Shown one piece after another: positions 41,477 to 58,310 of a DNA stretch of 64,000 bases (its first letter is position 1; the number at the start of each line of letters is the position of its first letter). The notes beneath the pieces were generated by a model that was given only the letters and a program-made list of their open reading frames with translations, searched no databases and was not told where the DNA came from. The translations under genes were made by a program, and so were the position numbers. Source of the stretch: a virus; the IMG/VR virus record IMGVR_UViG_3300044716_000883, positions 96,001 through 160,000 of that record; one strand, given 5' to 3'.

Positions 41477-42955
41477 ATGTCAGAAGAATTAAGGTTATGG
41501 AGGGATAAAAATCTCAACAAAGTTAGTAAAAGCTTTTGTGCCGCCAAATGGTTAAATGCTAGTTTGCACCTAGGCCATGGATTTACAAATTCATGCCATT
41601 TACCTCTACCCCACCCTGTTGATTTAGAAGAAATCAAGAAAAATCCATCAGCACTTCATAATACTCAGCATAAGAAAGAAATGAGAAAAATGATGCTAAA
41701 AGGTGAACGTCCCGCTGAATGTTCATATTGTTGGAAAATTGAGGACATAGGTAGAGATAATATTTCGGATCGTGTTTATAAGAGTAAAATTTATTCTAAA
41801 GAAGATCTTAATCGTATTGCAAAAACTCCATTCCATGAGGATGTGAATTTAAAAACTGTAGAAATTAGCTTTGACAGAACATGTACATTTGCTTGTTCTT
41901 ATTGTAATGCTGGTTATAGTACAACATGGGGTAAGGAAATTAATAAATTTGGACCCTATCAGAAATTTAAAACAGTTTCAGCAGAAGCATACCAAAATGA
42001 TGGGTCATGGGCCGACAAGTATGGTAAACATAGTCAGTTTAATCCTTATGTTGAAGCATTTTTAGCTTGGTGGCCTGAGTTATCTAAAGAGTTACAAGAA
42101 GTAAGAATTACAGGTGGTGAACCAAGTGCTAGTCATAATTTTTGGAACTTTATTGAAACTCTAAAGCAATATCCCGCTGAAAATATGGCGTTGGCTGTTA
42201 ACTCTAATCTAGGAATGGATCAGAAAACTCTAGAGAGAATGATCCAAATGACTAAAGATATTAAAATTAAAGAATTTGACTTATATACAAGCAATGAAGC
42301 TGTAGGAGCTCATGCTGAATATATTCGTGATGGATTAAAATATGATGTATGGAGACAAAATCTGGTAACATTTATTGAAAATGCCAAATTTAGATCCGTT
42401 ACTATAATGATGACTATTAATAGCCTATGCCTATTCAGTATAGATGAATTTTTAGATGACATGTTAGTGCTGAAAGAAAAATACGGACCTAACAGACCAA
42501 ATGTAGATTTAAATATTTTACGTTGGCCTGGATTTATGTCTCCTTTAGCTTTACCTGATGATATTAAAAAATCACTTCATACTAGATTAAAAAGATGGTA
42601 CAATAAAAATAAAAAGAATCCATTATTTAGTACAGGGGAAAAAGCTCAAATTGAACGTTTAATAGATTATATTGAAGTAGTTCAAAAAGGACATAACTAT
42701 ACTGAAGATGATAAAAGTTTATTATTGCATGATTTTAAATCATTTTATAAACAATATGATTTTAGACGTGGTAAAGACTTTAAAATGACATTCCCTGAAT
42801 TAGCTGAATGGTATGATACTTTGGTTGTAGACCAAGACATACCATCAGTTGAAATGAAAGATGGATCTATAACTCACTTTGAAAAAGGTGTCTATATACC
42901 ACCCCCAGGAACAATACCACCCCCAGAATTAAAACTACCACCCAAATTAATATAA
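41477..42955 (+). CDS. radical SAM protein with N-terminal twitch/SPASM-like domain
   Basis: CTFACSYC (CxxxCxxC), ITGGEP, FCAAKW...SCHLP...ECSYCW. Confidence 0.88.
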   Translation: MSEELRLWRDKNLNKVSKSFCAAKWLNASLHLGHGFTNSCHLPLPHPVDLEEIKKNPSALHNTQHKKEMRKMMLKGERPAECSYCWKIEDIGRDNISDRVYKSKIYSKEDLNRIAKTPFHEDVNLKTVEISFDRTCTFACSYCNAGYSTTWGKEINKFGPYQKFKTVSAEAYQNDGSWADKYGKHSQFNPYVEAFLAWWPELSKELQEVRITGGEPSASHNFWNFIETLKQYPAENMALAVNSNLGMDQKTLERMIQMTKDIKIKEFDLYTSNEAVGAHAEYIRDGLKYDVWRQNLVTFIENAKFRSVTIMMTINSLCLFSIDEFLDDMLVLKEKYGPNRPNVDLNILRWPGFMSPLALPDDIKKSLHTRLKRWYNKNKKNPLFSTGEKAQIERLIDYIEVVQKGHNYTEDDKSLLLHDFKSFYKQYDFRRGKDFKMTFPELAEWYDTLVVDQDIPSVEMKDGSITHFEKGVYIPPPGTIPPPELKLPPKLI

Positions 42956-49105: not shown

Positions 49106-50278
49106 ATGAAAGTAGGTTTTATTGGCGTTGGCAAATTAGGCAAAGACGCCGCTGAAGTTATGCATGAAGCAGGTCATGATGTTTTAGGGTATGATGTAAG
49201 GATAGTGCATGACACAAAGATTAGAATGACAACATCATTAAAAAATGTTTGTGAGTATGGTGATATTATTTTTATCGCGGTTCCAACCCCACACCACCCA
49301 GATTATGATGGTAGCCAACCAACATCACATTTAGAGCCAAAAGATTTTAACTATAATATTGTTAAAAACATATTAGAAGAAATTAATCAATACACAACTA
49401 AAGAACAATTAGTAGTGTTAATATCAACAGTTCTACCAGGTACTACAAGACGTGAGTTTATTCCATTAGTAAAAAATTATAGGTTTATTTATAATCCTTA
49501 TTTAATTGCTATGGGTACTGTAAAATATGATATGGTTAATCCTGAGATGGTAATAATAGGAACTGAAGACGGTACTGAAACAGGGGATGCTAAATTGTTA
49601 ACTGAATTTTATAAATCATTTGTATATAATAATATAAGATATGAAATTGGTACTTGGGACGATGCTGAAGCAATTAAAATATTCTATAACACATTTATCT
49701 CAGCCAAATTATCATTAGTTAATATGATAATGGATGTAGCTGAAATAAATGGTAATATGAATACAGATGTTGTGACAGGTGCTTTAGAAAGAAGTACAAA
49801 ACGAATTATGGGTTCTTCTTATATGAAAGCTGGTATGGGAGATGGAGGTGGGTGTCATCCTCGAGATAATATTGCTTTAAGATACATGGCTGAAAAATAT
49901 AAGTTAGGATATGATTTATTTGATTCTATTATGAAATCTAGAGAAGTTCAAGCTGAAAACATAGCTAAACGCTTAATAGAATTACACGATGTATATGAAC
50001 TACCAATTGTTATTCTAGGCGAAAGCTACAAACCAGGAGTTCCATATATAGATGGTTCTTACACTAAATTAATTGGTTATTATTTAGAAAATAAATTAGA
50101 ATATAAAGGATTACAATATGATAAAACTGATAATCAGGCTGTGTATTTATTAGGACATAGGGGTGTACATAACACTACCGATTTCCCTAAGGGTAGCATT
50201 ATTTTAGATCCTTGGAGAGAAAGACTTAAAAAAGATACAATCTATTACGGAAATAAAATAACAAGATGGATATACTAG
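49106..50278 (+). CDS. ugd: UDP-glucose/GDP-mannose dehydrogenase family protein
   Basis: GFIGVGKLG, FIAVPTP, STVLPGTT, AEAIKIFYNTF, GGGCHPRD catalytic Cys. Confidence 0.85.
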   Translation: MKVGFIGVGKLGKDAAEVMHEAGHDVLGYDVRIVHDTKIRMTTSLKNVCEYGDIIFIAVPTPHHPDYDGSQPTSHLEPKDFNYNIVKNILEEINQYTTKEQLVVLISTVLPGTTRREFIPLVKNYRFIYNPYLIAMGTVKYDMVNPEMVIIGTEDGTETGDAKLLTEFYKSFVYNNIRYEIGTWDDAEAIKIFYNTFISAKLSLVNMIMDVAEINGNMNTDVVTGALERSTKRIMGSSYMKAGMGDGGGCHPRDNIALRYMAEKYKLGYDLFDSIMKSREVQAENIAKRLIELHDVYELPIVILGESYKPGVPYIDGSYTKLIGYYLENKLEYKGLQYDKTDNQAVYLLGHRGVHNTTDFPKGSIILDPWRERLKKDTIYYGNKITRWIY

Positions 50279-51837
50279 GAATATCAGCATATTACCATGA
50301 CTCAGCAGCTTGCTTATTTAGAGACGGCAAATTGATATATGCTTGTGAAGAAGAAAAATTTACAGGTATTAAACATGATTCTTCATTTCCTGTTAATTCA
50401 ATAAAGTATATTTTTGATCATTTTACTGATAAAGTAGATCTTGTATGCTATTATGAAAAACCTTCTTTAAAAATAAAAAGAGCATTTAAACATAATCTTA
50501 AATCTGTTCCTCGTATATTGTGGACTAGTATTAAATTATGGTTTCAATTAGGGCAATTTAATGCTCCTGTACATTATTCTTCTCACCATAATTCTCATTT
50601 AGCATATGCTTATTATACCTCACCTTTTGATAAAGCAACAGTAATTAGCATAGATGGCGTTGGTGAGGAAGATACAATATGTGTTGCTAAAGCTGAGTAT
50701 GGAAGAATAACACCAATAAAAACAACTAAATATCCACATTCATTAGGATTATTTTATTCTGCTATAACAGCATTTTTAGGATTTAAACCAAATGAAGGTG
50801 AATATAAAGTAATGGGTTTAGCATCATATGGTGACCCCTCAGTGTATTCTGGTGCTTTCAATAAATTAATTTCTCATAGAGATGGTATTAAAACAAACAT
50901 GAAATACTTTACTTGGGATAAAAGTAATGATACTATGTTTAATCATCACTTAATAGAATTATTAGGTGATAATAGATTACCTAATGAACCAATAACCCAA
51001 CGTCATAAAGATATTGCTGCTGCTTTACAACAACAATATGAGAGTATGTTTTTCTATTTATTAAATCAACATCCTGGAGAAAATTTATGTTTAGGGGGTG
51101 GTTGTGCTTATAATGGAACCGCAAATGGCAAAATTAAAGTATACACCGATTATAAAAACATTTATATACCACAAGCACCATCAGATGCTGGATCGTGTAT
51201 TGGTGCGTGTTTAAATTATTTAGGGTACCATCGTGAAGTAGACAAATATTTAGGGCCACATTTTGATACACAAATTCAAGGTGCTAGACTTTTAAATTTA
51301 TGGCTACTTGCTGAAGAATTATATAAAGGTAAAGTTATAGGTTGGTATGAAGGTAAAATTGAATTTGGAGCTCGCGCATTGGGTCACCGCAGTATATTAG
51401 CAAGCCCAACATACCCTGGTATGCAAGACCGTATCAATAAGCTCATTAAAAAACGAGAAATGTTCAGGCCTTTTGCTCCAATGGTAACTTATAATACCCA
51501 AAATAAGTATTTTTATTCCGATGATTACGTGCCTTATATGAACCAAGTAGTTAAGGTTAGAGAAGAATATAGAGATAAACTAACCGCAATTACACATGTT
51601 GATGGTACTGCTCGTATACAATCTGTAAAATTAGAAGATAATGATAGAATATATAGATTATTAAATCTTTTTGGTGAGCATAGTGGATTTCCTATATTAT
51701 TGAATACATCATTCAATATAAAAGATAAAACAATGGTGCTATACCCAGAAGATGCTTTACAAACGTTCTGGGATACCGACATAGACATATTAGTTATTAA
51801 CAATCAAATGATATTTAAAAATGATAAAATTAATTAA
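50266..51837 (+). CDS. O-carbamoyltransferase (NodU/CmcH/TobZ family)
   Basis: YHDSAA, EEEKF, HHNSH, DGVGE, GGCAYN, EFGARALGHRSILA, FRPFAP, HVDGTARIQ, LNTSFN. Confidence 0.93.
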   Translation: MDILGISAYYHDSAACLFRDGKLIYACEEEKFTGIKHDSSFPVNSIKYIFDHFTDKVDLVCYYEKPSLKIKRAFKHNLKSVPRILWTSIKLWFQLGQFNAPVHYSSHHNSHLAYAYYTSPFDKATVISIDGVGEEDTICVAKAEYGRITPIKTTKYPHSLGLFYSAITAFLGFKPNEGEYKVMGLASYGDPSVYSGAFNKLISHRDGIKTNMKYFTWDKSNDTMFNHHLIELLGDNRLPNEPITQRHKDIAAALQQQYESMFFYLLNQHPGENLCLGGGCAYNGTANGKIKVYTDYKNIYIPQAPSDAGSCIGACLNYLGYHREVDKYLGPHFDTQIQGARLLNLWLLAEELYKGKVIGWYEGKIEFGARALGHRSILASPTYPGMQDRINKLIKKREMFRPFAPMVTYNTQNKYFYSDDYVPYMNQVVKVREEYRDKLTAITHVDGTARIQSVKLEDNDRIYRLLNLFGEHSGFPILLNTSFNIKDKTMVLYPEDALQTFWDTDIDILVINNQMIFKNDKIN

Positions 51838-51928
51838 ACGCTGGATTGATAAATGGAAACACAAGCGTAAAATGAAAAAAAGAATTGAACAACTAAAGAA
51901 AAACGATCCATTCATCTATAAACATTAA
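51821..51928 (+). CDS. 35-aa basic peptide ending DPFIYKH (not in ORF track)
   Basis: MIKLIKRWIDKWKHKRKMKKRIEQLKKNDPFIYKH bridges the carbamoyltransferase and the kinase. Confidence 0.55.
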   Translation: MIKLIKRWIDKWKHKRKMKKRIEQLKKNDPFIYKH

Positions 51929-51929
51929 T

Positions 51930-52349
51930 ATGATAACAGTATTATTTGGACAACCACACTCAGGTAAAACAACATTAGCTGATAAACTAGAAGCGGATTA
52001 TTATATAGATGGAGACCATCTAAGAACTATGTTTCAAAACAAAGATTATAGTAGGCAAGGTAGAATTAATAACTTAAATAGAGCTAGTGATATTGCTACT
52101 TATTTACATTATAACGGTGAAAACGTAGTTTTATCTTTAGTTTATCCATACCAAGAAACAAGAAATTACTTAAATGGCTTGGTACCTGGGGTTAAATGGA
52201 TTTATTTAACATATGAAATAGATAGAGGTAGAGAACAATTCCACGTAGCTGATTTTGAACACCCAGCTGATGATGAAGCTCTATACTTAAATACAGAATG
52301 GATAAGCGAAGAAGATTGTATCAAACAAATTAAAGAATATGTGGGATAA
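51930..52349 (+). CDS. cysC: adenylylsulfate (APS) kinase-like protein
   Basis: FGQPHSGKTT P-loop, IDGDHLR, YSRQGRINN, VVLSLVYP. Confidence 0.8.
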   Translation: MITVLFGQPHSGKTTLADKLEADYYIDGDHLRTMFQNKDYSRQGRINNLNRASDIATYLHYNGENVVLSLVYPYQETRNYLNGLVPGVKWIYLTYEIDRGREQFHVADFEHPADDEALYLNTEWISEEDCIKQIKEYVG

Positions 52350-52737
52350 GAAAGTACATGTTAAAAGTTCAATGGAACGTAAAGATAGTCAATGGTCATT
52401 GTTTATTGGACGTTGGCAACCACTCCACACAGGCCATAAAGAATTATTTAGACAAGTAATTAGTGAAGGTGGTAAAGTGTGTGTTGGTATTAGAGATGGA
52501 GAAGTTAATGAAAAAAATCCATTTAGTCCATTTCAAGTAATGGATACTATTTTTAATGAAATGCAAGCTGAAGTAGAAGCAGGCACTCTAAAAGTAATCA
52601 TTATACCAGATATTTGCAGTGTTGAATTTGGACGCGGTGTTGGATACGATATTATAGAGCATATACCACCACCAGAAGTGGCCGAAATATCAGCGACTAA
52701 AATACGTGAACAAATGAAATCTGAAGGTAAATTATGA
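52339..52737 (+). CDS. HxGH nucleotidyltransferase (cytidylyltransferase-like; possible minimal ATP sulfurylase)
   Basis: IGRWQPLHTGH, KNPF, ISATKIR. Confidence 0.75.
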   Translation: MWDKKVHVKSSMERKDSQWSLFIGRWQPLHTGHKELFRQVISEGGKVCVGIRDGEVNEKNPFSPFQVMDTIFNEMQAEVEAGTLKVIIIPDICSVEFGRGVGYDIIEHIPPPEVAEISATKIREQMKSEGKL

Positions 52738-53081
52738 TAAAATATCCTACCTATTTTGTAGATATAGATGGTACACTAATTAAGTACAGAAAATTCAGTG
52801 AAATAAATGAAATACCACCAACACCTATACAAAGTGTTATTGATAAAGTAAATAATGAATATGACAACGGTACTCATATAGTAATTACAACTGCTCGACC
52901 TGCAGAACTTGAGTTGTTTACAAAACAAGAACTAGAAAAAATTGGCGTAAAATACCATCAATTAGTAATGGAAATTGGTAGAGGTACAAGATACATTATC
53001 AATGATAGAGACCCAGAAGCACCTGAAGTTGATAGAGCAGTTGGTATTAATTTAAATAGAAATGAAGGAATATGCATGTAA
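52734..53081 (+). CDS. HAD-superfamily phosphatase
   Basis: FVDIDGTL motif I, ITTAR motif II, INDR. Confidence 0.78.
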   Translation: MIKYPTYFVDIDGTLIKYRKFSEINEIPPTPIQSVIDKVNNEYDNGTHIVITTARPAELELFTKQELEKIGVKYHQLVMEIGRGTRYIINDRDPEAPEVDRAVGINLNRNEGICM

Positions 53082-53281
53082 GTAAAAAAAGACATATAGC
53101 CAAAACCATTAGTTATCGCGTTATTAGTACGCTGATTGGATTTGGCATTATGTGGGCTGTTACCGGCAGCATTAAAATCGGTGCTGCGTTTGGTATTGCT
53201 GAATTAGTATATAAACCAATACAGTATTACATTCATGAACGGATATGGTATAAGTGGATTAAATATGGTTTAAAAAACTAA
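53072..53281 (+). CDS. DUF2061-like small membrane protein
   Basis: RHIAKTISYRVISTL...YYIHERIWYK. Confidence 0.75.
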   Translation: MHVSKKRHIAKTISYRVISTLIGFGIMWAVTGSIKIGAAFGIAELVYKPIQYYIHERIWYKWIKYGLKN

Positions 53282-53295
53282 TATTTATATGTGTT

Positions 53296-53583
53296 ATGAA
53301 TAAAATAAAAGAAATAATGAGTGCATGGGCTGTATCATTTAACCCATCACCAGAACAAAGAGAATTAGCGGAGAAGCGATATGAGATATGTTTAGGTTGC
53401 GAACATTATGGTAAAAGTAGACCTGTAATCGGAGATGAATATTGTAAAAAATGTTTATGTTCTCTACAAAAAAAGGTATATACACCGAAATTAAACAAAA
53501 CCTGTCCTCTTAAAAAATGGGAAATTGTAGAAAAAGAATTTAAAGATAAAGAAATAAAAAAAAATAAACAAACATTAATATAA
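53296..53583 (+). CDS. Cys-rich metal-binding protein (DUF6171-like), copy 1
   Basis: RYEICLGC...CKKCLCSL..K...CPLKKW. Confidence 0.65.
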   Translation: MNKIKEIMSAWAVSFNPSPEQRELAEKRYEICLGCEHYGKSRPVIGDEYCKKCLCSLQKKVYTPKLNKTCPLKKWEIVEKEFKDKEIKKNKQTLI

Positions 53584-53587
53584 TAAT

Positions 53588-55051
53588 ATGAGAGCAGTTA
53601 TAGTCGGACTAGATTTTATATATGACTCAGTTGGCAATTTACTACCAATAGAAATGAACACAAACATTGGTTATGCCAACCAAAAAGTTGAAAAGGATTC
53701 AGATGTTTTTGATATGACTGAGTTTCAAAACTTTGTAACCACAAATGGGTTTTTAAAAGTAACATATATAGGTAAAAATACTCAAATTAAAGAACAAATT
53801 GAAAAGGTTACTACTCAACTTTCTTTAGAATTTGAGTCAATGTTGGTCTCAACATCTGCTATTACTATACCATATGTTGAAGATAGTCCAACACATTTAA
53901 TTGTAAGAACAGCTTTTGACACGACTGCAATTTTAGATGATCTTTATTGTGGAAATAAGATTAATTATTTAAACCTAATAAAAGACTCCGAATTTGGACT
54001 AGAGTTTGCATATCTTAATGAAGATGGAGAGTTAGTTAACCACATCACAAATATATTAGATAATGGAATCCACCCAAACTTCATATTAAAGGCTGTAAAA
54101 CCAGCATATGACAAAAAAATATACCCAAAATTTTATAGAGTTTCAAATCAAACAGAATTAGATATTGTATTACAAAACGTAACCTCTGATTATTTTTTAA
54201 TGCCATTCTACTTTAATGAAACAAAACTACATTCAGAAAAAATAACTAAAATAAGAAAAATTAGTATGTTTTTTCCTCCTAACTTGGAGTCTATCCATAT
54301 AGGAGCATATACTGATTTAGCAATACAAAAATTAAATAGCAATGTTGTTTTTGATCCAGATACATTTGAAATAGATAACATAAATAGGTTGGCATACTTT
54401 ACAAGAGATTTCAGGATAGAGGGTTTACCGAAATTAATGGATGATGATTATGTAATAATGGCTGATGATACAATGAAGAGCGGATTGGATTTGCAAGTTG
54501 GTGATTTAGTTAAAACAATAGATATACCCAACCCAGAAAATGCTGATGCTAAGAATATAATGGTTAATTATCAAATTGATATGGAAACCTTTTTAAGTGG
54601 TGTTACATATAGTACAAATAAAGTAACAAGCAAAAGAAGAATTGATATTGTAGTTGAAGTTATGGAAATAAATTTTAGTGATGGTACAAATTGGTTCGAT
54701 ACAGTAAACTCAAGTTATTTAGTTTACGAAAATAATGAAATTAAATTTAAAAAAATAATGGATTTTGTTGAAGGAGACATTGTGTTATTAGTTGATACAT
54801 CTGATAGCCAGAATGTACAAATACAACAAAAAATAGTACAAAGCACAACCTTAAAAGAAAAAGAATTTTCAGGTTGGACAATTTCAGTTGAGAGAGAACA
54901 TCTATTTTTAACAGTTACAACACCAAACACTACTAATGTATCTTTTGCTAATACATTTTTTGCTGCGGTGGAACATAATTATTATTCCTGTATTTATGAC
55001 ACTACATGTGGTAAAGGTTACTTTTGTCTCCGAGGCAGATGTACAACATAA
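53588..55051 (+). CDS. circularly permuted ATP-grasp-like ligase + Hint domain + 23-aa Cys-rich C-terminal peptide
   Basis: N-terminal DFIYD..GNL.PIEMNTN and ILKAVKP; Hint VIMADD...LQVGDLV, FSDG, VEREHLF, VEHN; tail YYSCIYDTTCGKGYFCLRGRCTT. Confidence 0.7.
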   Translation: MRAVIVGLDFIYDSVGNLLPIEMNTNIGYANQKVEKDSDVFDMTEFQNFVTTNGFLKVTYIGKNTQIKEQIEKVTTQLSLEFESMLVSTSAITIPYVEDSPTHLIVRTAFDTTAILDDLYCGNKINYLNLIKDSEFGLEFAYLNEDGELVNHITNILDNGIHPNFILKAVKPAYDKKIYPKFYRVSNQTELDIVLQNVTSDYFLMPFYFNETKLHSEKITKIRKISMFFPPNLESIHIGAYTDLAIQKLNSNVVFDPDTFEIDNINRLAYFTRDFRIEGLPKLMDDDYVIMADDTMKSGLDLQVGDLVKTIDIPNPENADAKNIMVNYQIDMETFLSGVTYSTNKVTSKRRIDIVVEVMEINFSDGTNWFDTVNSSYLVYENNEIKFKKIMDFVEGDIVLLVDTSDSQNVQIQQKIVQSTTLKEKEFSGWTISVEREHLFLTVTTPNTTNVSFANTFFAAVEHNYYSCIYDTTCGKGYFCLRGRCTT

Positions 55052-55098
55052 TACTAATCAACACCCCCAAATTAATTAATATTAAATTTCTATATAAA

Positions 55099-55176
55099 AT
55101 GACAAGTCAAGAAAAACAAATTACAGACAATATTGTAAATAGTATTGGTAATTTAATAGTGCAGGCTAATAGCTAA
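55099..55176 (+). CDS. 25-aa peptide (not in ORF track)
   Basis: MTSQEKQITDNIVNSIGNLIVQANS with A-rich start context in the gap after the Hint gene. Confidence 0.45.
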   Translation: MTSQEKQITDNIVNSIGNLIVQANS

Positions 55177-55202
55177 TTAAATAAGATTTTTAAATAAAGT
55201 TT

Positions 55203-55934
55203 ATGTCAATTTGTGTAAATAACGACCTTATATGGGTGGCAACCCCAAAATGTGCTAGCATGTCTATAGAATGTGCTTTTATTAATTCTAATCTGAACAT
55301 AGATCATTACAAATACGGACAAAGTAAATCTTATCCTGAACATCATCATATTAGGTTATCTGATTTGTATCAAAAATTTGGTAAAAAAGATACTGCAGTA
55401 ATTAAAAGAGATTATTTTGACAGATGGATTAGTGGATTACAGTATTTGTGGATGATGTATGAGGAAAAAAATTATGAAATAATAATAAAATGGGAAGATA
55501 TCAATAATGATTTTATATATGAGACTTTCACACCAGAATTTATCGATCAAATATACTCTTTACCATCCTCAGTAAATTCATCAGATCTATTAAGTTTTAG
55601 CGAAATAAACAAATATAAGGAAGTATTAAAACTAATTACTTCTAAATTAGTAAAACCAAAACTAAAAGACTCTAATACCCCCTTTAATCCATATTTTTTG
55701 CTAAAATCACAATCACATTGGGTAGATAATAATAAATGTACATATGAATTTAATATTAGTGAGATTGACAAATTTGAAAATTTTATTTCAAATAGATATA
55801 ATGTGAAATTTAAGGTATGTAAGTTAAATCAAAATAAATCTAGAAAAAATCAAATCATAAAAGACGAAAAACTTAAACAATGGGTATGGGATAATTTTGA
55901 GAAAAGATTTGAAAAAAGAAACTCATTAATATGA
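55203..55934 (+). CDS. sulfotransferase family protein (Sulfotransfer_2-like)
   Basis: WVATPKCASMSI (5'-PSB-like), RDYFDRWISG (3'-PB-like). Confidence 0.7.
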   Translation: MSICVNNDLIWVATPKCASMSIECAFINSNLNIDHYKYGQSKSYPEHHHIRLSDLYQKFGKKDTAVIKRDYFDRWISGLQYLWMMYEEKNYEIIIKWEDINNDFIYETFTPEFIDQIYSLPSSVNSSDLLSFSEINKYKEVLKLITSKLVKPKLKDSNTPFNPYFLLKSQSHWVDNNKCTYEFNISEIDKFENFISNRYNVKFKVCKLNQNKSRKNQIIKDEKLKQWVWDNFEKRFEKRNSLI

Positions 55935-56428
55935 TAATATCAAACAAATATTTTAATCATTCTGAATGTTTAACTATATTAGATTTTGTAAAATCCAACC
56001 AACAAAAATGGAAATTATTTAATAGAGAATATGAATCCCATGCTATAGATTATTCACTTGAAACAATGTGGTTATTTGAAAAGCTTAGTTCTTTTTTTGA
56101 AGAAAATATAAATTTAAAAATAAAAAAATTAAAACCACAAATACATTTTCATAAATTTAAAGAAGGTGATTGGTTTGGAAAACATAATGACGCCCGAGAT
56201 AATAGAGTATATGCTGTCGGTGTTTTATTAAATGACAATTTTGATGGAGGAGATTTTAAATTTTATAACCCAACAGAACAAACACTAAATAAAATAGTAG
56301 GAAATACTTACTTGTTTGATGTTAGAATTGAACATGAAATAACACCTATTATAAAAGGAGAAAGATATTCATTATTGTGGTTTTTACAAAACGAACATAT
56401 CAAATTTCAAACAAATAAATTAATATAA
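55931..56428 (+). CDS. 2OG-Fe(II) oxygenase (prolyl-hydroxylase-like)
   Basis: FKEGDWFGKHND (HxD), LLNDNFDGGDF, HEITPIIKGERYSL. Confidence 0.88.
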   Translation: MIISNKYFNHSECLTILDFVKSNQQKWKLFNREYESHAIDYSLETMWLFEKLSSFFEENINLKIKKLKPQIHFHKFKEGDWFGKHNDARDNRVYAVGVLLNDNFDGGDFKFYNPTEQTLNKIVGNTYLFDVRIEHEITPIIKGERYSLLWFLQNEHIKFQTNKLI

Positions 56429-57045
56429 TGAAAGGTACAGAAGAACTTATAATAAGTAACAATGCAATAAAATTATCAACTGATGATGAATATAGTGCCG
56501 TTATGCACATTGCCGAAAAATCTATAATGAATAAACTTGCAGAAATTGTTACTAAAAATGGAGGTGATATACTAGAAATTGGATTTGGTATGAACCTATC
56601 TGCCGATGCTATACAATCAAATCCAAATGTAACGTCTCATACTATAATTGAAATCCATCCTATACAATACCAAAGAGCATTAGAATGGGCAAAATTGCAA
56701 AAAAAGAAAACTACAATTTTACTAGGAGATTGGATTGATTTACTTCCACTTTCTGATGTAAAATTCGATGGTATTTTACATGATACACATTTAGACTCAA
56801 ATATACATAAATTTTTAGACTATGTTGTAGATAATTGTAAAAAAAATACGATTGTTGGTTTTTTTGGATTTCCTAAATTTGACTTACGTTTAAATGGAGT
56901 TAGATGTTCAATTGATAGTGAAATATATGAAACACTCCCTTATAAGGATAATATACATTTTAAACATAATCAATTTGAATTAAAATATACTATATTTGAT
57001 GGAACACAATTTAAATCAGACAATAAAACAATATCTTTACTATAA
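56428..57045 (+). CDS. class I SAM methyltransferase, GAMT/Rmt2-like
   Basis: VMHIAEKSIM..LAEIV...GGDILEIGFGMNLSADAIQ...HTIIEIHP; FDGILHDT. Confidence 0.78.
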   Translation: MKGTEELIISNNAIKLSTDDEYSAVMHIAEKSIMNKLAEIVTKNGGDILEIGFGMNLSADAIQSNPNVTSHTIIEIHPIQYQRALEWAKLQKKKTTILLGDWIDLLPLSDVKFDGILHDTHLDSNIHKFLDYVVDNCKKNTIVGFFGFPKFDLRLNGVRCSIDSEIYETLPYKDNIHFKHNQFELKYTIFDGTQFKSDNKTISLL

Positions 57046-57060
57046 GAAATCTGACTTAAA

Positions 57061-57498
57061 ATGATAAAATTCGAATTAGATATTAACGATTATAATTTAA
57101 TTAAAGATTTAAATGTATTGCAATATAAGGATGATTTGCAATCCGATGATATAAAAAAATTAATAACATATTTTAATTCTGAATATACATGGGATAAGAT
57201 GTTTAATTTTAATGATGTTACGGATAGAATTAAAAATGGCCATTTATTATTTATTTTATATTATGAAAATAAATCTATTGGATATGTATTTTTCAAACCA
57301 ATAACCAATTCCGAATTTTATCTTTATAATTTATATGTTACAAACAAAATATATCGTCCTTTCTATGCACCTCAGTGGTTTGTAAATAGATGTATAGGTT
57401 TATTACCAAAATCAATTTTAAAAATATTGTGTGAATGCGAAGACTGGCATGCATCAGCACAAAATGTGTTTATTTCAAACGGATTTATAAAAATTTAA
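57061..57498 (+). CDS. GNAT-fold acetyltransferase-like protein
   Basis: IGYVFF, FYLYNLYV, WHASAQNVFISNGF. Confidence 0.6.
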   Translation: MIKFELDINDYNLIKDLNVLQYKDDLQSDDIKKLITYFNSEYTWDKMFNFNDVTDRIKNGHLLFILYYENKSIGYVFFKPITNSEFYLYNLYVTNKIYRPFYAPQWFVNRCIGLLPKSILKILCECEDWHASAQNVFISNGFIKI

Positions 57499-57512: not shown

Positions 57513-57545
57513 TTTGGTGGTCTCCATTCTCTTGTATATATTTAT
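57513..57545 (+). promoter_or_regulatory. Bacteroidota-type promoter candidate TTTG-N20-TATATTTA
   Basis: TTTG 57513-57516, 20-nt spacer, TATATTTA from 57537, upstream of ATG 57567. Confidence 0.55.
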
Positions 57546-57566: not shown

Positions 57567-57803
57567 ATGACAGTATTAGTAATCCTAATCATCGTTGCCG
57601 TAGCGGTATTCGTTGCTATGAAAACCGGTAAGGTTAAAGATGCAAACAACAACAACATTCCTGACGCTATTGAAAAGCCACTTGAAGAAGTAAAAGAAGT
57701 AGTTAAAGCAACTGTTGCAAAAGTAAAAGCTACTAAAGCACCACAAGCTCCTAAAGCAACAAAAAAACCAGTAGCAAAAACTAGTGCTAAAAAGCAAAAG
57801 TAA
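57567..57803 (+). CDS. small membrane-anchored protein with Lys/Ala/Pro-rich tail
   Basis: N-terminal TM helix, DANNNNIPD loop, KAPQAPKATKKP tail. Confidence 0.65.
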   Translation: MTVLVILIIVAVAVFVAMKTGKVKDANNNNIPDAIEKPLEEVKEVVKATVAKVKATKAPQAPKATKKPVAKTSAKKQK

Positions 57804-58036
57804 TGCTAAAACTAGCAGAAATAGCTAAGGCATGGATAGCAGCAGCTAATCCAACACCTGGGCAAAAAATTATAGCAGAGCATAGGGCGAGTGTTTGTGA
57901 CACTTGCCCAAGCAAAGCTTATAATAAAATAATGGATTTCTATTTTTGCAGTGAATGTGGATGTCCACTAAACAAAAAAATTTTCAGTCCTGTTGAGGGA
58001 CCTAAAGCTTGCCCGTTAGCTAAATGGGAAAAATAA
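57803..58036 (+). CDS. Cys-rich metal-binding protein (DUF6171-like), copy 2
   Basis: RASVCDTC...CSECGCPLNKK...CPLAKW. Confidence 0.68.
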   Translation: MLKLAEIAKAWIAAANPTPGQKIIAEHRASVCDTCPSKAYNKIMDFYFCSECGCPLNKKIFSPVEGPKACPLAKWEK

Positions 58037-58040
58037 CGTT

Positions 58041-58310
58041 ATGGCACAATTAACACCAGAAGAATTACAATCAGTTAAAGACTTACAGTCTAAGTACAAT
58101 CAAACCATATTTGAAATCGGTGCGTCTGAAGCGCAAATGATCGCATTTCAACAGGGCATTGAGAAATTACAAAAAGCTAAAGAAGGCTTAATATCTGATC
58201 TATCAACAATTGAACAGAAAGAATCGGAACTAATTAAATCTTTGCAAGAAAAGTACGAACAAGGCAGTATAGATCTAGAAACAGGAAAAATAACATTGGA
58301 TCAACAATAA
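58041..58310 (+). CDS. small coiled-coil protein
   Basis: Heptad pattern, C-terminal YEQGSIDLETG. Confidence 0.6.
   Translation: MAQLTPEELQSVKDLQSKYNQTIFEIGASEAQMIAFQQGIEKLQKAKEGLISDLSTIEQKESELIKSLQEKYEQGSIDLETGKITLDQQ

Follow-up and report, generated by a model that had tools for sequence, protein, structure and literature searches.

The genes at positions 53296-57498 of the stretch of virus DNA analysed here encode a Hint-domain protein together with several enzymes, and our data support the view that these genes work as a functional cassette with the Hint gene at its centre. The stretch, referred to below as the window, comprises 64,000 nucleotides, positions 96,001 to 160,000 of IMG/VR record IMGVR_UViG_3300044716_000883. 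The Hint protein, which we term the launcher, consists of an ATP-grasp half, a Hint half and a short Cys-rich peptide, the cargo. A small protein with six Cys residues (Zn1) and the modifying enzymes encoded next to it share a C-terminal tail. We propose that the run represents, in this virus, a cassette that is widespread among phages and in which enzymes bearing the tail would dock on the launcher and tailor its cargo. The probability of this proposal is, in our estimate, roughly 45%, a little short of an even chance. We found no description of an ATP-grasp-Hint phage system, or of the shared tail, in the literature.

Zn1, the sulfotransferase, the oxygenase and the methyltransferase of the run all end in K-x-x-K-[ST]-L-[IL]-COOH, and elsewhere the same ending is carried by radical S-adenosylmethionine (SAM) enzymes. 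We trained a position matrix on four families from other loci and applied it to the C-termini of the 244 open reading frames (ORFs) of the genome. Four of the six best-scoring ORFs lie inside the unit (p 1.5e-6). On this result and on the peak of tailed ORFs just after the launcher gene in other loci, described below, we reject chance clustering. Another of the six is a second Sulfotransfer_2 gene (L081:15048-15698, G000:C1:91048-91698), located about 5 kb before the window and 58 kb from the cassette. Its product, which matches PF03567 above the cut-off (1.3e-7), ends in YKTTLI, and no other C-terminus of the genome scores higher as a tail. The other tail-scoring ORF outside the unit encodes a 313-amino acid (aa) protein of no known family with a tail-like KKTCLI end (L081:3585-4526, G000:C1:79585-80526).

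For comparison we assembled about 120 viral loci, in one set of 80 retrieved with the launcher and another of 76 retrieved with the Cys protein; all ORFs of the first 80 were clustered, and the set of 76 was screened by tblastn. Across families the distribution of the tail is bimodal. It is present in 55-100% of the members of ten enzyme families and of Zn; these tail-bearing families are Zn itself, several 2-oxoglutarate (2OG) oxygenase families, both types of sulfotransferase, the methyltransferases resembling guanidinoacetate N-methyltransferase (GAMT) and the radical SAM proteins (97% of the members of family f4). It is present in none of the launchers, adenosine phosphosulfate (APS) kinases, nucleotidyltransferases, DUF2061 proteins, carbamoyltransferases, GNAT proteins (0/11), Hsp20 proteins and structural families. 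Tailed ORFs are concentrated directly after the launcher gene, at 35/40 in the first position, 28/42 in the second, 30/41 in the third and 21/39 in the fourth, against a background of about 3-5%. Loci with the Hint gene contain 188 tailed ORFs among 933, in comparison with 0/390 in 26 Hint-less loci, though the latter are related to each other and a p-value would overstate their independence. A whole Hint-less genome has no tailed ORF among its 167, and the 2OG oxygenase homologs found in Hint-less loci are without the tail. In a complete 336-kb genome with a launcher, 10 of the 427 ORFs are tailed, and the first 6 kb downstream of the launcher gene hold six of these.

The Thr, Leu and Ser positions of the tail use all synonymous codons in approximately genomic proportions, with TCN as well as AGY codons for Ser, which shows that selection acts on the peptide and not on the DNA. 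The stop codons and the sequence 3' of the tail are variable as well. A DNA-level signal, such as a promoter, an overlap or a recombination site, was rejected because of this synonymous codon use. In the AF2 model of Zn1 the chain terminates in a disordered extension, the tail.

A tail of this kind might be read by something other than the launcher. It could be a signal for a host factor or for another phage factor: a degron of the ClpX type (the RRKKAI end of MuA is a C-terminal degron of this type), a localisation or packaging signal, or a dock for a small heat-shock protein. Shared timing would in that case be all that links it to the launcher. Consistent with this, the tail combines basic character with a hydrophobic end, and we found no co-variation between the tail consensus and the launcher subfamily. 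The genome also encodes one Hsp20 family protein (L158, G000:C1:10177-10464; PF00011, 2.1e-14), about 139 kb from the cassette. Hsp20 is nevertheless not favoured as the reader, since it is also present in the Hint-less genome that has no tailed ORFs, and since in this genome, as in the complete relative, over 130 kb separates it from the cassette. Nor is it likely that a signal read by the host would vanish from 2OG oxygenase homologs exactly where the launcher is missing. We regard an outside reader as very unlikely. The most economical candidate for the reader of the tag is the launcher, and that for the substrate of the tagged enzymes is the Cys-rich cargo.

The launcher gene occupies positions 53588-55051 on the + strand, and its product has no family-level match in Pfam, PHROGs or NCBIfam. 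Its two halves were recognised in an AF2 model (pLDDT 81) built with 21 homologs as input. Residues 1-280 (53588-54427) adopt in this model a circularly permuted ATP-grasp fold of the GspS/glutathione synthetase type. In a VIA comparison residues 1-277 match glutathionylspermidine synthetase 2io7 with Z 9.2 over 207 aligned residues, followed by YgiC (7uka, Z 8.8) and glutathione synthetases (Z 6-7.7, with 2wyo at 7.7); TTLL and LysX/ArgX are lower-ranked matches. Foldseek concurs (1m0t, 2hgs, 7uk6). Residues E22, N24, R107, K168 and R223 are invariant across launcher subfamilies that share 22-26% identity, and profile positions 8-37 align weakly (E 0.5-0.8) with the Glu-x-Asn region of biotin-carboxylase-type domains. 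On the basis of the model, the N-terminal half is predicted to belong to that branch of ATP-grasp ligases whose members join peptide carboxylates to amines.

The remainder of the conserved part, residues 281-464 (54428-54979), is a Hint domain. Residues 279-464 match the NpuDnaB intein with Z 13.9 and a root-mean-square deviation of 2.6 A over 139-145 aligned residues. VIA also matches this half to BIL2, the Hedgehog Hint domain and KlbA, Foldseek gives E 7e-7, and a sequence profile compared with PDB finds the KlbA intein at 2.1e-5. The domain ends in His463-Asn464, which superpose on the intein C-terminus and are invariant in an alignment of 21 sequences (A1) and in another of 10 sequences at 22-52% identity (A6). 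The counterpart of intein residue 1 is an invariant P281/K282, which means that the launcher Hint is without the N-terminal nucleophile. Splicing requires Cys, Ser or Thr at residue 1 and at the residue following the domain (+1), and the launcher does not have this combination. Cyclisation of the terminal Asn would instead sever whatever follows, here a peptide of 23 aa with four Cys (54980-55051, + strand, including the stop codon).

A profile search of 1.8 billion representatives gave 529 clusters of launcher relatives; 150 of these were listed, and the 132 that are full-length were read. In all 132 the N-terminus is the ATP-grasp domain, and the ligase-Hint unit always precedes the cargo. 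What follows it varies greatly. The 198 proteins compared have 168 different cargo peptides of 14-62 aa, usually with 6 or 8 Cys; Cys accounts for 18.6% of their residues and Gly for 12.5%. Sixteen different amino acids occur at the +1 position, where 7 of the 168 have Cys. Besides short Cys-rich peptides, the relatives have Cys-rich segments followed by a Peptidase_S74 self-cleaving chaperone, Cys-rich segments followed by a second canonical Cys-initiated Hint or by tandem Hints (Pfam Hint, PT-HINT and Intein_splicing), giant cargos of BACON domains, and stubs of 5-7 residues. Judging from these arrangements, an S74 domain or a second Hint after the cargo would be able to free or activate its far end. 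Since the Cys-rich segment is ended in three independent ways, by a stop codon, by S74 or by a second Hint, we infer that the segment itself is the released product.

Several of these relatives merit description in their own right. In P0237, P0250 and P0254 two to four tandem canonical Hints follow the first, each ending in ...NGILVHNK. Other relatives have a Cys-rich peptide between two Hints, which is the layout of engineered intein-mediated cyclisation (SICLOPPS). One launcher subfamily (loci L094, L096, L101, L103 and others) has Met/Gln-His-Asn followed by a cargo of the CWCPW type that ends in Pro-Lys-Leu/Ile, and some relatives retain nothing of it but this 7-aa end. A relative with BACON cargo, P0251 (L184:8001-11699), is 1232 aa long and is flanked by GT7/LamG glycosyltransferases with a UDP-sugar dehydrogenase on one side and by the tail sheath on the other. 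This genomic slot is the same as that of the launcher in the window.

The presence of a ligase in front of the Hint domain leads to a different possibility, in which the tail is a substrate handle. The ATP-grasp domain would activate a C-terminal carboxylate, which might belong to the tailed proteins, to the cargo or to a virion protein, and would join it to the alpha-amine of the cargo exposed by the Hint domain. If so, proteins would be conjugated to peptides, a peptide would be cyclised or the virion would be decorated covalently. The nearest ATP-grasp structures (glutathionylspermidine, glutathione and trypanothione synthetases, TTLLs, LysX/ArgX) are of enzymes that join a C-terminal or gamma-carboxylate of a peptide or protein to an amine. 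No cargo class departs from the invariant ligase residues, the tail is disordered and ends the chain, and the Cys-initiated second Hint that follows the cargo in relatives would give a C-terminal thioester and the chemistry of ligation or cyclisation. The cargo types, Cys-rich knots, BACON and S74-processed segments, resemble modules of the extracellular space or of the virion surface. Against this, we see no reason for appending a peptide to oxygenases or sulfotransferases, no conjugate or cyclic product is known, and the ATP-grasp match is at the level of the fold only (Z about 9). We hold the handle to be quite unlikely. Much the same low probability applies to the launcher as a self-priming protein ligase, which would join the exposed alpha-amine of its cargo to the carboxylate of a tailed protein, of a virion protein or of the cargo's own end, in the last case giving a cyclic Cys-rich peptide.

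The docking proposal draws further support from the composition of the neighbourhoods. The 80 launcher loci reduce to 45 lineages at 85% identity, of which 40 have at least 6 kb of sequence downstream and 31 have at least 6 kb upstream. Zn adjoins the Hint gene in 79 of the 80 loci (tblastn). Downstream of the Hint gene a sulfotransferase is found in 32 of the 40 lineages, 2OG oxygenases in 31 (often as several paralogs), the N-terminal-twitch radical SAM family f4 in 21, a NodH-like second sulfotransferase in 17, GNAT in nine and the methyltransferase in four. According to these counts, the core comprises the launcher, the Cys protein, the sulfotransferase and the oxygenases, and the remainder is accessory. 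The initial annotation, made from the letters of the window, had suggested a peptide- or protein-tailoring cluster around the Hint gene and proposed to look for its neighbours in other phages. The neighbours are indeed not random, the sulfotransferase and the oxygenases each being present in about 80% of lineages, and the idea of a cluster holds for a core that recurs and shares a tail. It does not hold for the methyltransferase, for the GNAT protein, which has no tail, or for a 25-aa ORF (55099-55176, + strand) whose frame exists only in the three closest loci. The last is rejected as a component of the cassette since it is not conserved. In the relative with BACON cargo the tailed Zn is kept and the enzyme array is absent, so that the array is tied to the Cys-rich type of cargo on the basis of this one locus. 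A tandem-Hint relative has tailed genes of the GAMT-like, 2OG oxygenase and radical SAM types beside it, encoded on the opposite strand; the methyltransferase homolog that adjoins it has a PF27704 match.

In the docking model, the modifying enzymes are an interchangeable set. Here the set would consist of the sulfotransferase, the 2OG oxygenase and the guanidino-methyltransferase, and elsewhere it would include radical SAM enzymes, the second sulfotransferase type and additional oxygenases. The tail would plug each of them onto one reader, most likely the launcher, with the six-Cys protein as a small partner of the launcher, and the docked enzymes would tailor the cargo before or during its release. 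An adjacent module with APS kinase would supply 3'-phosphoadenosine 5'-phosphosulfate (PAPS).

The members of this set in the window can be assigned with different degrees of precision. The oxygenase (55931-56428, + strand, tail QTNKLI) is of the 2OG-Fe(II), prolyl-4-hydroxylase-like kind; it matches phrog_61 and also PF13640 at 34.2 bits (cut-off 27 bits), and the H-x-D, distal H and R-x-S motifs are readable in its translation. The methyltransferase (56428-57045, + strand, tail NKTISLL), an accessory member, is GAMT-like: its profile (A5) matches GAMT structures 1p1b, 1khh, 1xcj and 3orh at E 3.6e-14, over positions 25-120 only. The Sulfotransfer_2-like protein (55203-55934, + strand, tail KRNSLI) has no Pfam match of its own. 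One of its 32 relatives matches PF03567 (5.5e-5), its structural similarity in the Atlas is TM 0.57 to a cluster that is 100% PF03567, and its profile finds heparan sulfate 2-O-sulfotransferase in PDB at a marginal 0.09. The GNAT-like protein (57061-57498, + strand, no tail) has weak best PDB-profile E-values of 1.7e-3 and 3e-3 and no matches in Pfam or NCBIfam, and its membership in the system is doubtful. Outside the run, a radical SAM protein with the N-terminal twitch (41477-42955, + strand; NF033640, 304 bits against a cut-off of 170 bits) ends in PPKLI and is a relative of the tailed family f4 found beside the Hint gene elsewhere. A SET-domain protein represents one more enzyme class. 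Protein modifiers occur among prolyl-hydroxylase-like oxygenases, GAMT/Rmt2-type methyltransferases and SET proteins. The gene classes read from the sequence initially are thus retained for the oxygenase, the methyltransferase (as GAMT-like), the Hint-ligase and the Cys protein; that of the sulfotransferase depends on similarity in the Atlas, and that of GNAT is weak.

Zn1 itself (53296-53583, + strand) is a zinc-ribbon-like protein of 95 aa that matches phrog_13558 and ends in KNKQTLI. Its conserved residues are C32, C35, C50, C53, C55 and C70. The AF2 model (pLDDT 82), in which residues 93-95 form the disordered tail, has no convincing match among PDB folds (best Z 4.1), and the Atlas returns viral hypotheticals only, with DUF6171 in 22% of one cluster. 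The Zn protein exists in two forms, one tailed and beside the launcher, the other tail-less and before the genes for a coiled-coil protein, sheath and tube. The second form is represented in the window by Zn2, a paralog of Zn1 (57803-58036, + strand). In the 26 Hint-less loci the tail-less form is found directly 5' of homologs of the ORF at 58041-58310, of the sheath and of the tube. The succession of a tail-less six-Cys protein, an 89-aa coiled-coil protein, sheath and tube, seen in the window from 57803-58310 onwards and also in L105, L106, L111, L122 and others, looks from sequence as if it belonged to the tail module, as a part not yet annotated.

If the tagged enzymes have a common substrate, it might not be the cargo. 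They might decorate a glycan or a small molecule made by the neighbouring sugar island and displayed by the virion or at the surface of the host, with the launcher and Zn serving as a hub for them or as a separate device for virion decoration that has no more in common with them than the operon and the reader of the tag. The sulfotransferases are Sulfotransfer_2-like and NodH-like. Genes for a UDP-sugar dehydrogenase, an epimerase, a carbamoyltransferase and PAPS supply lie upstream. The launcher with BACON cargo has GT7/LamG glycosyltransferases as immediate neighbours on one side and the sheath on the other, and BACON is a putative carbohydrate-binding domain. However, the glycosyltransferases, the dehydrogenase, the epimerase and the carbamoyltransferase are without the tail. 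In lineages where the launcher and the sugar genes are separate, the tailed enzymes track the launcher, and at the one locus where the cargo is not Cys-rich the array of enzymes is absent. We consider a glycan or small-molecule substrate unlikely, though it must be taken seriously.

Nor is tailoring of the cargo by docked enzymes free of difficulties. The following points weigh against it. The docking model does not account for the ATP-grasp domain. In the cytoplasm the 4-8 Cys of such a peptide would stay free of disulfides, which could form only after release. The residues of the cargo are not conserved, so that no fixed target site is visible. The initial annotation had paired the enzymes with residues of the released peptide, namely its N-terminal Tyr-Tyr, its Arg residues and its Asp and Lys; given a +1 position open to any of 16 amino acids and a hypervariable peptide, this pairing is not conserved and is not supported. 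Raw associations between cargo residues and enzymes do exist: for the methyltransferase the residue is Arg (p 0.002), for oxygenase families it is Pro (p < 0.001) and for the sulfotransferase it is Tyr (p 0.017), and in 4/4 methyltransferase loci there is an Arg near the last Cys. After phylogenetic pairing, Arg accompanies the methyltransferase in 3/3 independent pairs and Pro accompanies the f11 oxygenases in 2-3 of 5, both with p at least 0.25; the contrasts are too few for the associations to be confirmed, and the two trends are suggestive only. Sulfotransferases of the Sulfotransfer_2 and NodH-like families are known mainly from glycans. Finally, the cassette adjoins a 17-kb island for sugar synthesis and a carbamoyltransferase.

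Comparison with known systems shows partial likenesses. As in clusters for peptides that are made on ribosomes and then modified post-translationally (RiPPs), including SCIFF/ranthipeptides, a single precursor joins an N-terminal part that is conserved to a Cys-rich C-terminal core that is hypervariable, and oxygenase, methyltransferase, sulfotransferase and radical SAM genes are co-encoded. The cassette thus has the conserved part, the hypervariable core and the co-located tailoring enzymes by which a RiPP system is recognised. Release of the core by proteolysis, as predicted for the cassette, is a further likeness. The 'leader' of the cassette differs in being an enzyme fusion of 464 aa that would cut itself. 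A RiPP recognition element was not found in the cassette. Recognition seems to be inverted too: the enzymes share a tag, in place of a leader that each of them reads. Pretoxin-HINT proteins (PF07591) are similar to the launcher in having Hint directly before a polymorphic cargo that is thought to be released, and extra domains of launcher relatives match PF07591. The launcher differs in being encoded by phages and in having ATP-grasp at its N-terminus and no Rhs, CdiA or secretion-type delivery region. Its cargo is mostly a Cys-rich peptide of 20-60 aa and not an enzyme toxin, and no immunity gene was recognised downstream, where the genes are those of Zn and the enzymes.

Bacterial intein-like (BIL) domains, BIL2 of Tetrahymena BUBL, the Hedgehog Hint domain and class-2 inteins such as KlbA have the same fold as the Hint half (Z 12.6-13.6; 22% identity to BIL2). 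BIL domains also end in His-Asn and are known to process themselves without splicing, and KlbA is without Cys1 as well. The launcher differs from them in its Pro/Lys at residue 1, in a variable +1 residue, in that C-terminal cleavage is the only possible reaction and in its fusion to a ligase. With glutathione, glutathionylspermidine and trypanothione synthetases, TTL/TTLL and LysX/ArgX, the launcher shares the fold, a circular permutation as in eukaryotic glutathione synthetase and possibly the conserved Glu-x-Asn, but it has no sequence-level match to any of their families in Pfam or NCBIfam, and a fusion of such a ligase to Hint has not been described. Other examples of tags at the C-terminus are PTS1 (-SKL), which is read by Pex5, the IxI motif of small heat-shock proteins and the ClpX signal of the MuA type. 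The tail of the cassette is like these signals in being a very short motif that ends the chain of unrelated proteins, and unlike them in being restricted to enzymes encoded beside one phage gene.

The genome from which the window derives is complete, with 179,381 bp and terminal repeats. Its tail genes are myovirus-like, and the sheath nearest to its own is that of Flavobacterium phage immuto (52% identity). Searches of 50,697 records of cultured phages by tblastn, with the launcher and with Zn, gave no matches; blastn with the 5.4-kb region against the same records gave one match of 127 nt, to an uncultured phage record. The run of seven ORFs read initially as co-oriented and starting after ATATTTAT was confirmed: all seven are present on the + strand, and a copy of this promoter-like motif opens the unit at 53281-53288 (+ strand). 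The next copy, at 57538-57545, closes it. Since the two copies bracket the run and there is none between 53288 and 57538, a single transcription unit is plausible. The number of copies in the window is not above chance (25, with 19.6 +/- 4.4 expected); 23 of the 25 are on the + strand, mostly 10-50 nt 5' of ORF starts. From 2378 to 62735 of the window the motif precedes the starts of structural and island genes, and we regard it, on these positions, as a candidate late-promoter element.

Immediately upstream of the cassette, an untagged module (50266-53281, + strand; Pfam/NCBIfam matches) encodes a carbamoyltransferase, an APS kinase, an HxGH-type nucleotidyltransferase, a HAD phosphatase and a DUF2061 protein. 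In 14 of the 31 lineages with sufficient upstream sequence, the order carbamoyltransferase, APS kinase, nucleotidyltransferase, DUF2061 directly precedes the launcher; the HAD phosphatase is found in this phage only. The nucleotidyltransferase (52339-52737) is a stand-alone protein closest to nicotinamide mononucleotide adenylyltransferases (6.6e-8), and may be a substitute for ATP sulfurylase.

Several consequences can be drawn if the docking proposal is correct. Large uncultured phages would have a modular system for peptide tailoring, in which the precursor excises its own product by means of a Hint domain capable of C-terminal cleavage only. A single C-terminal tag would recruit any enzyme that bears it, which would be a new logic for the biosynthesis of ribosomal natural products and would provide a portable tag for enzyme sets. 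This would also explain why these phages hoard paralogs of oxygenases, sulfotransferases and radical SAM enzymes. The hundreds of different Cys-rich cargos would constitute a library of mini-proteins, whose possible targets are the host surface, competitors and the virion. If instead the launcher is a ligase acting on its own cargo, the phages would have a system for post-translational tagging, cyclisation or virion decoration with no known counterpart. Even with a glycan as the substrate, a tag so strictly linked to the launcher would represent an undescribed organisation of phage enzymes.

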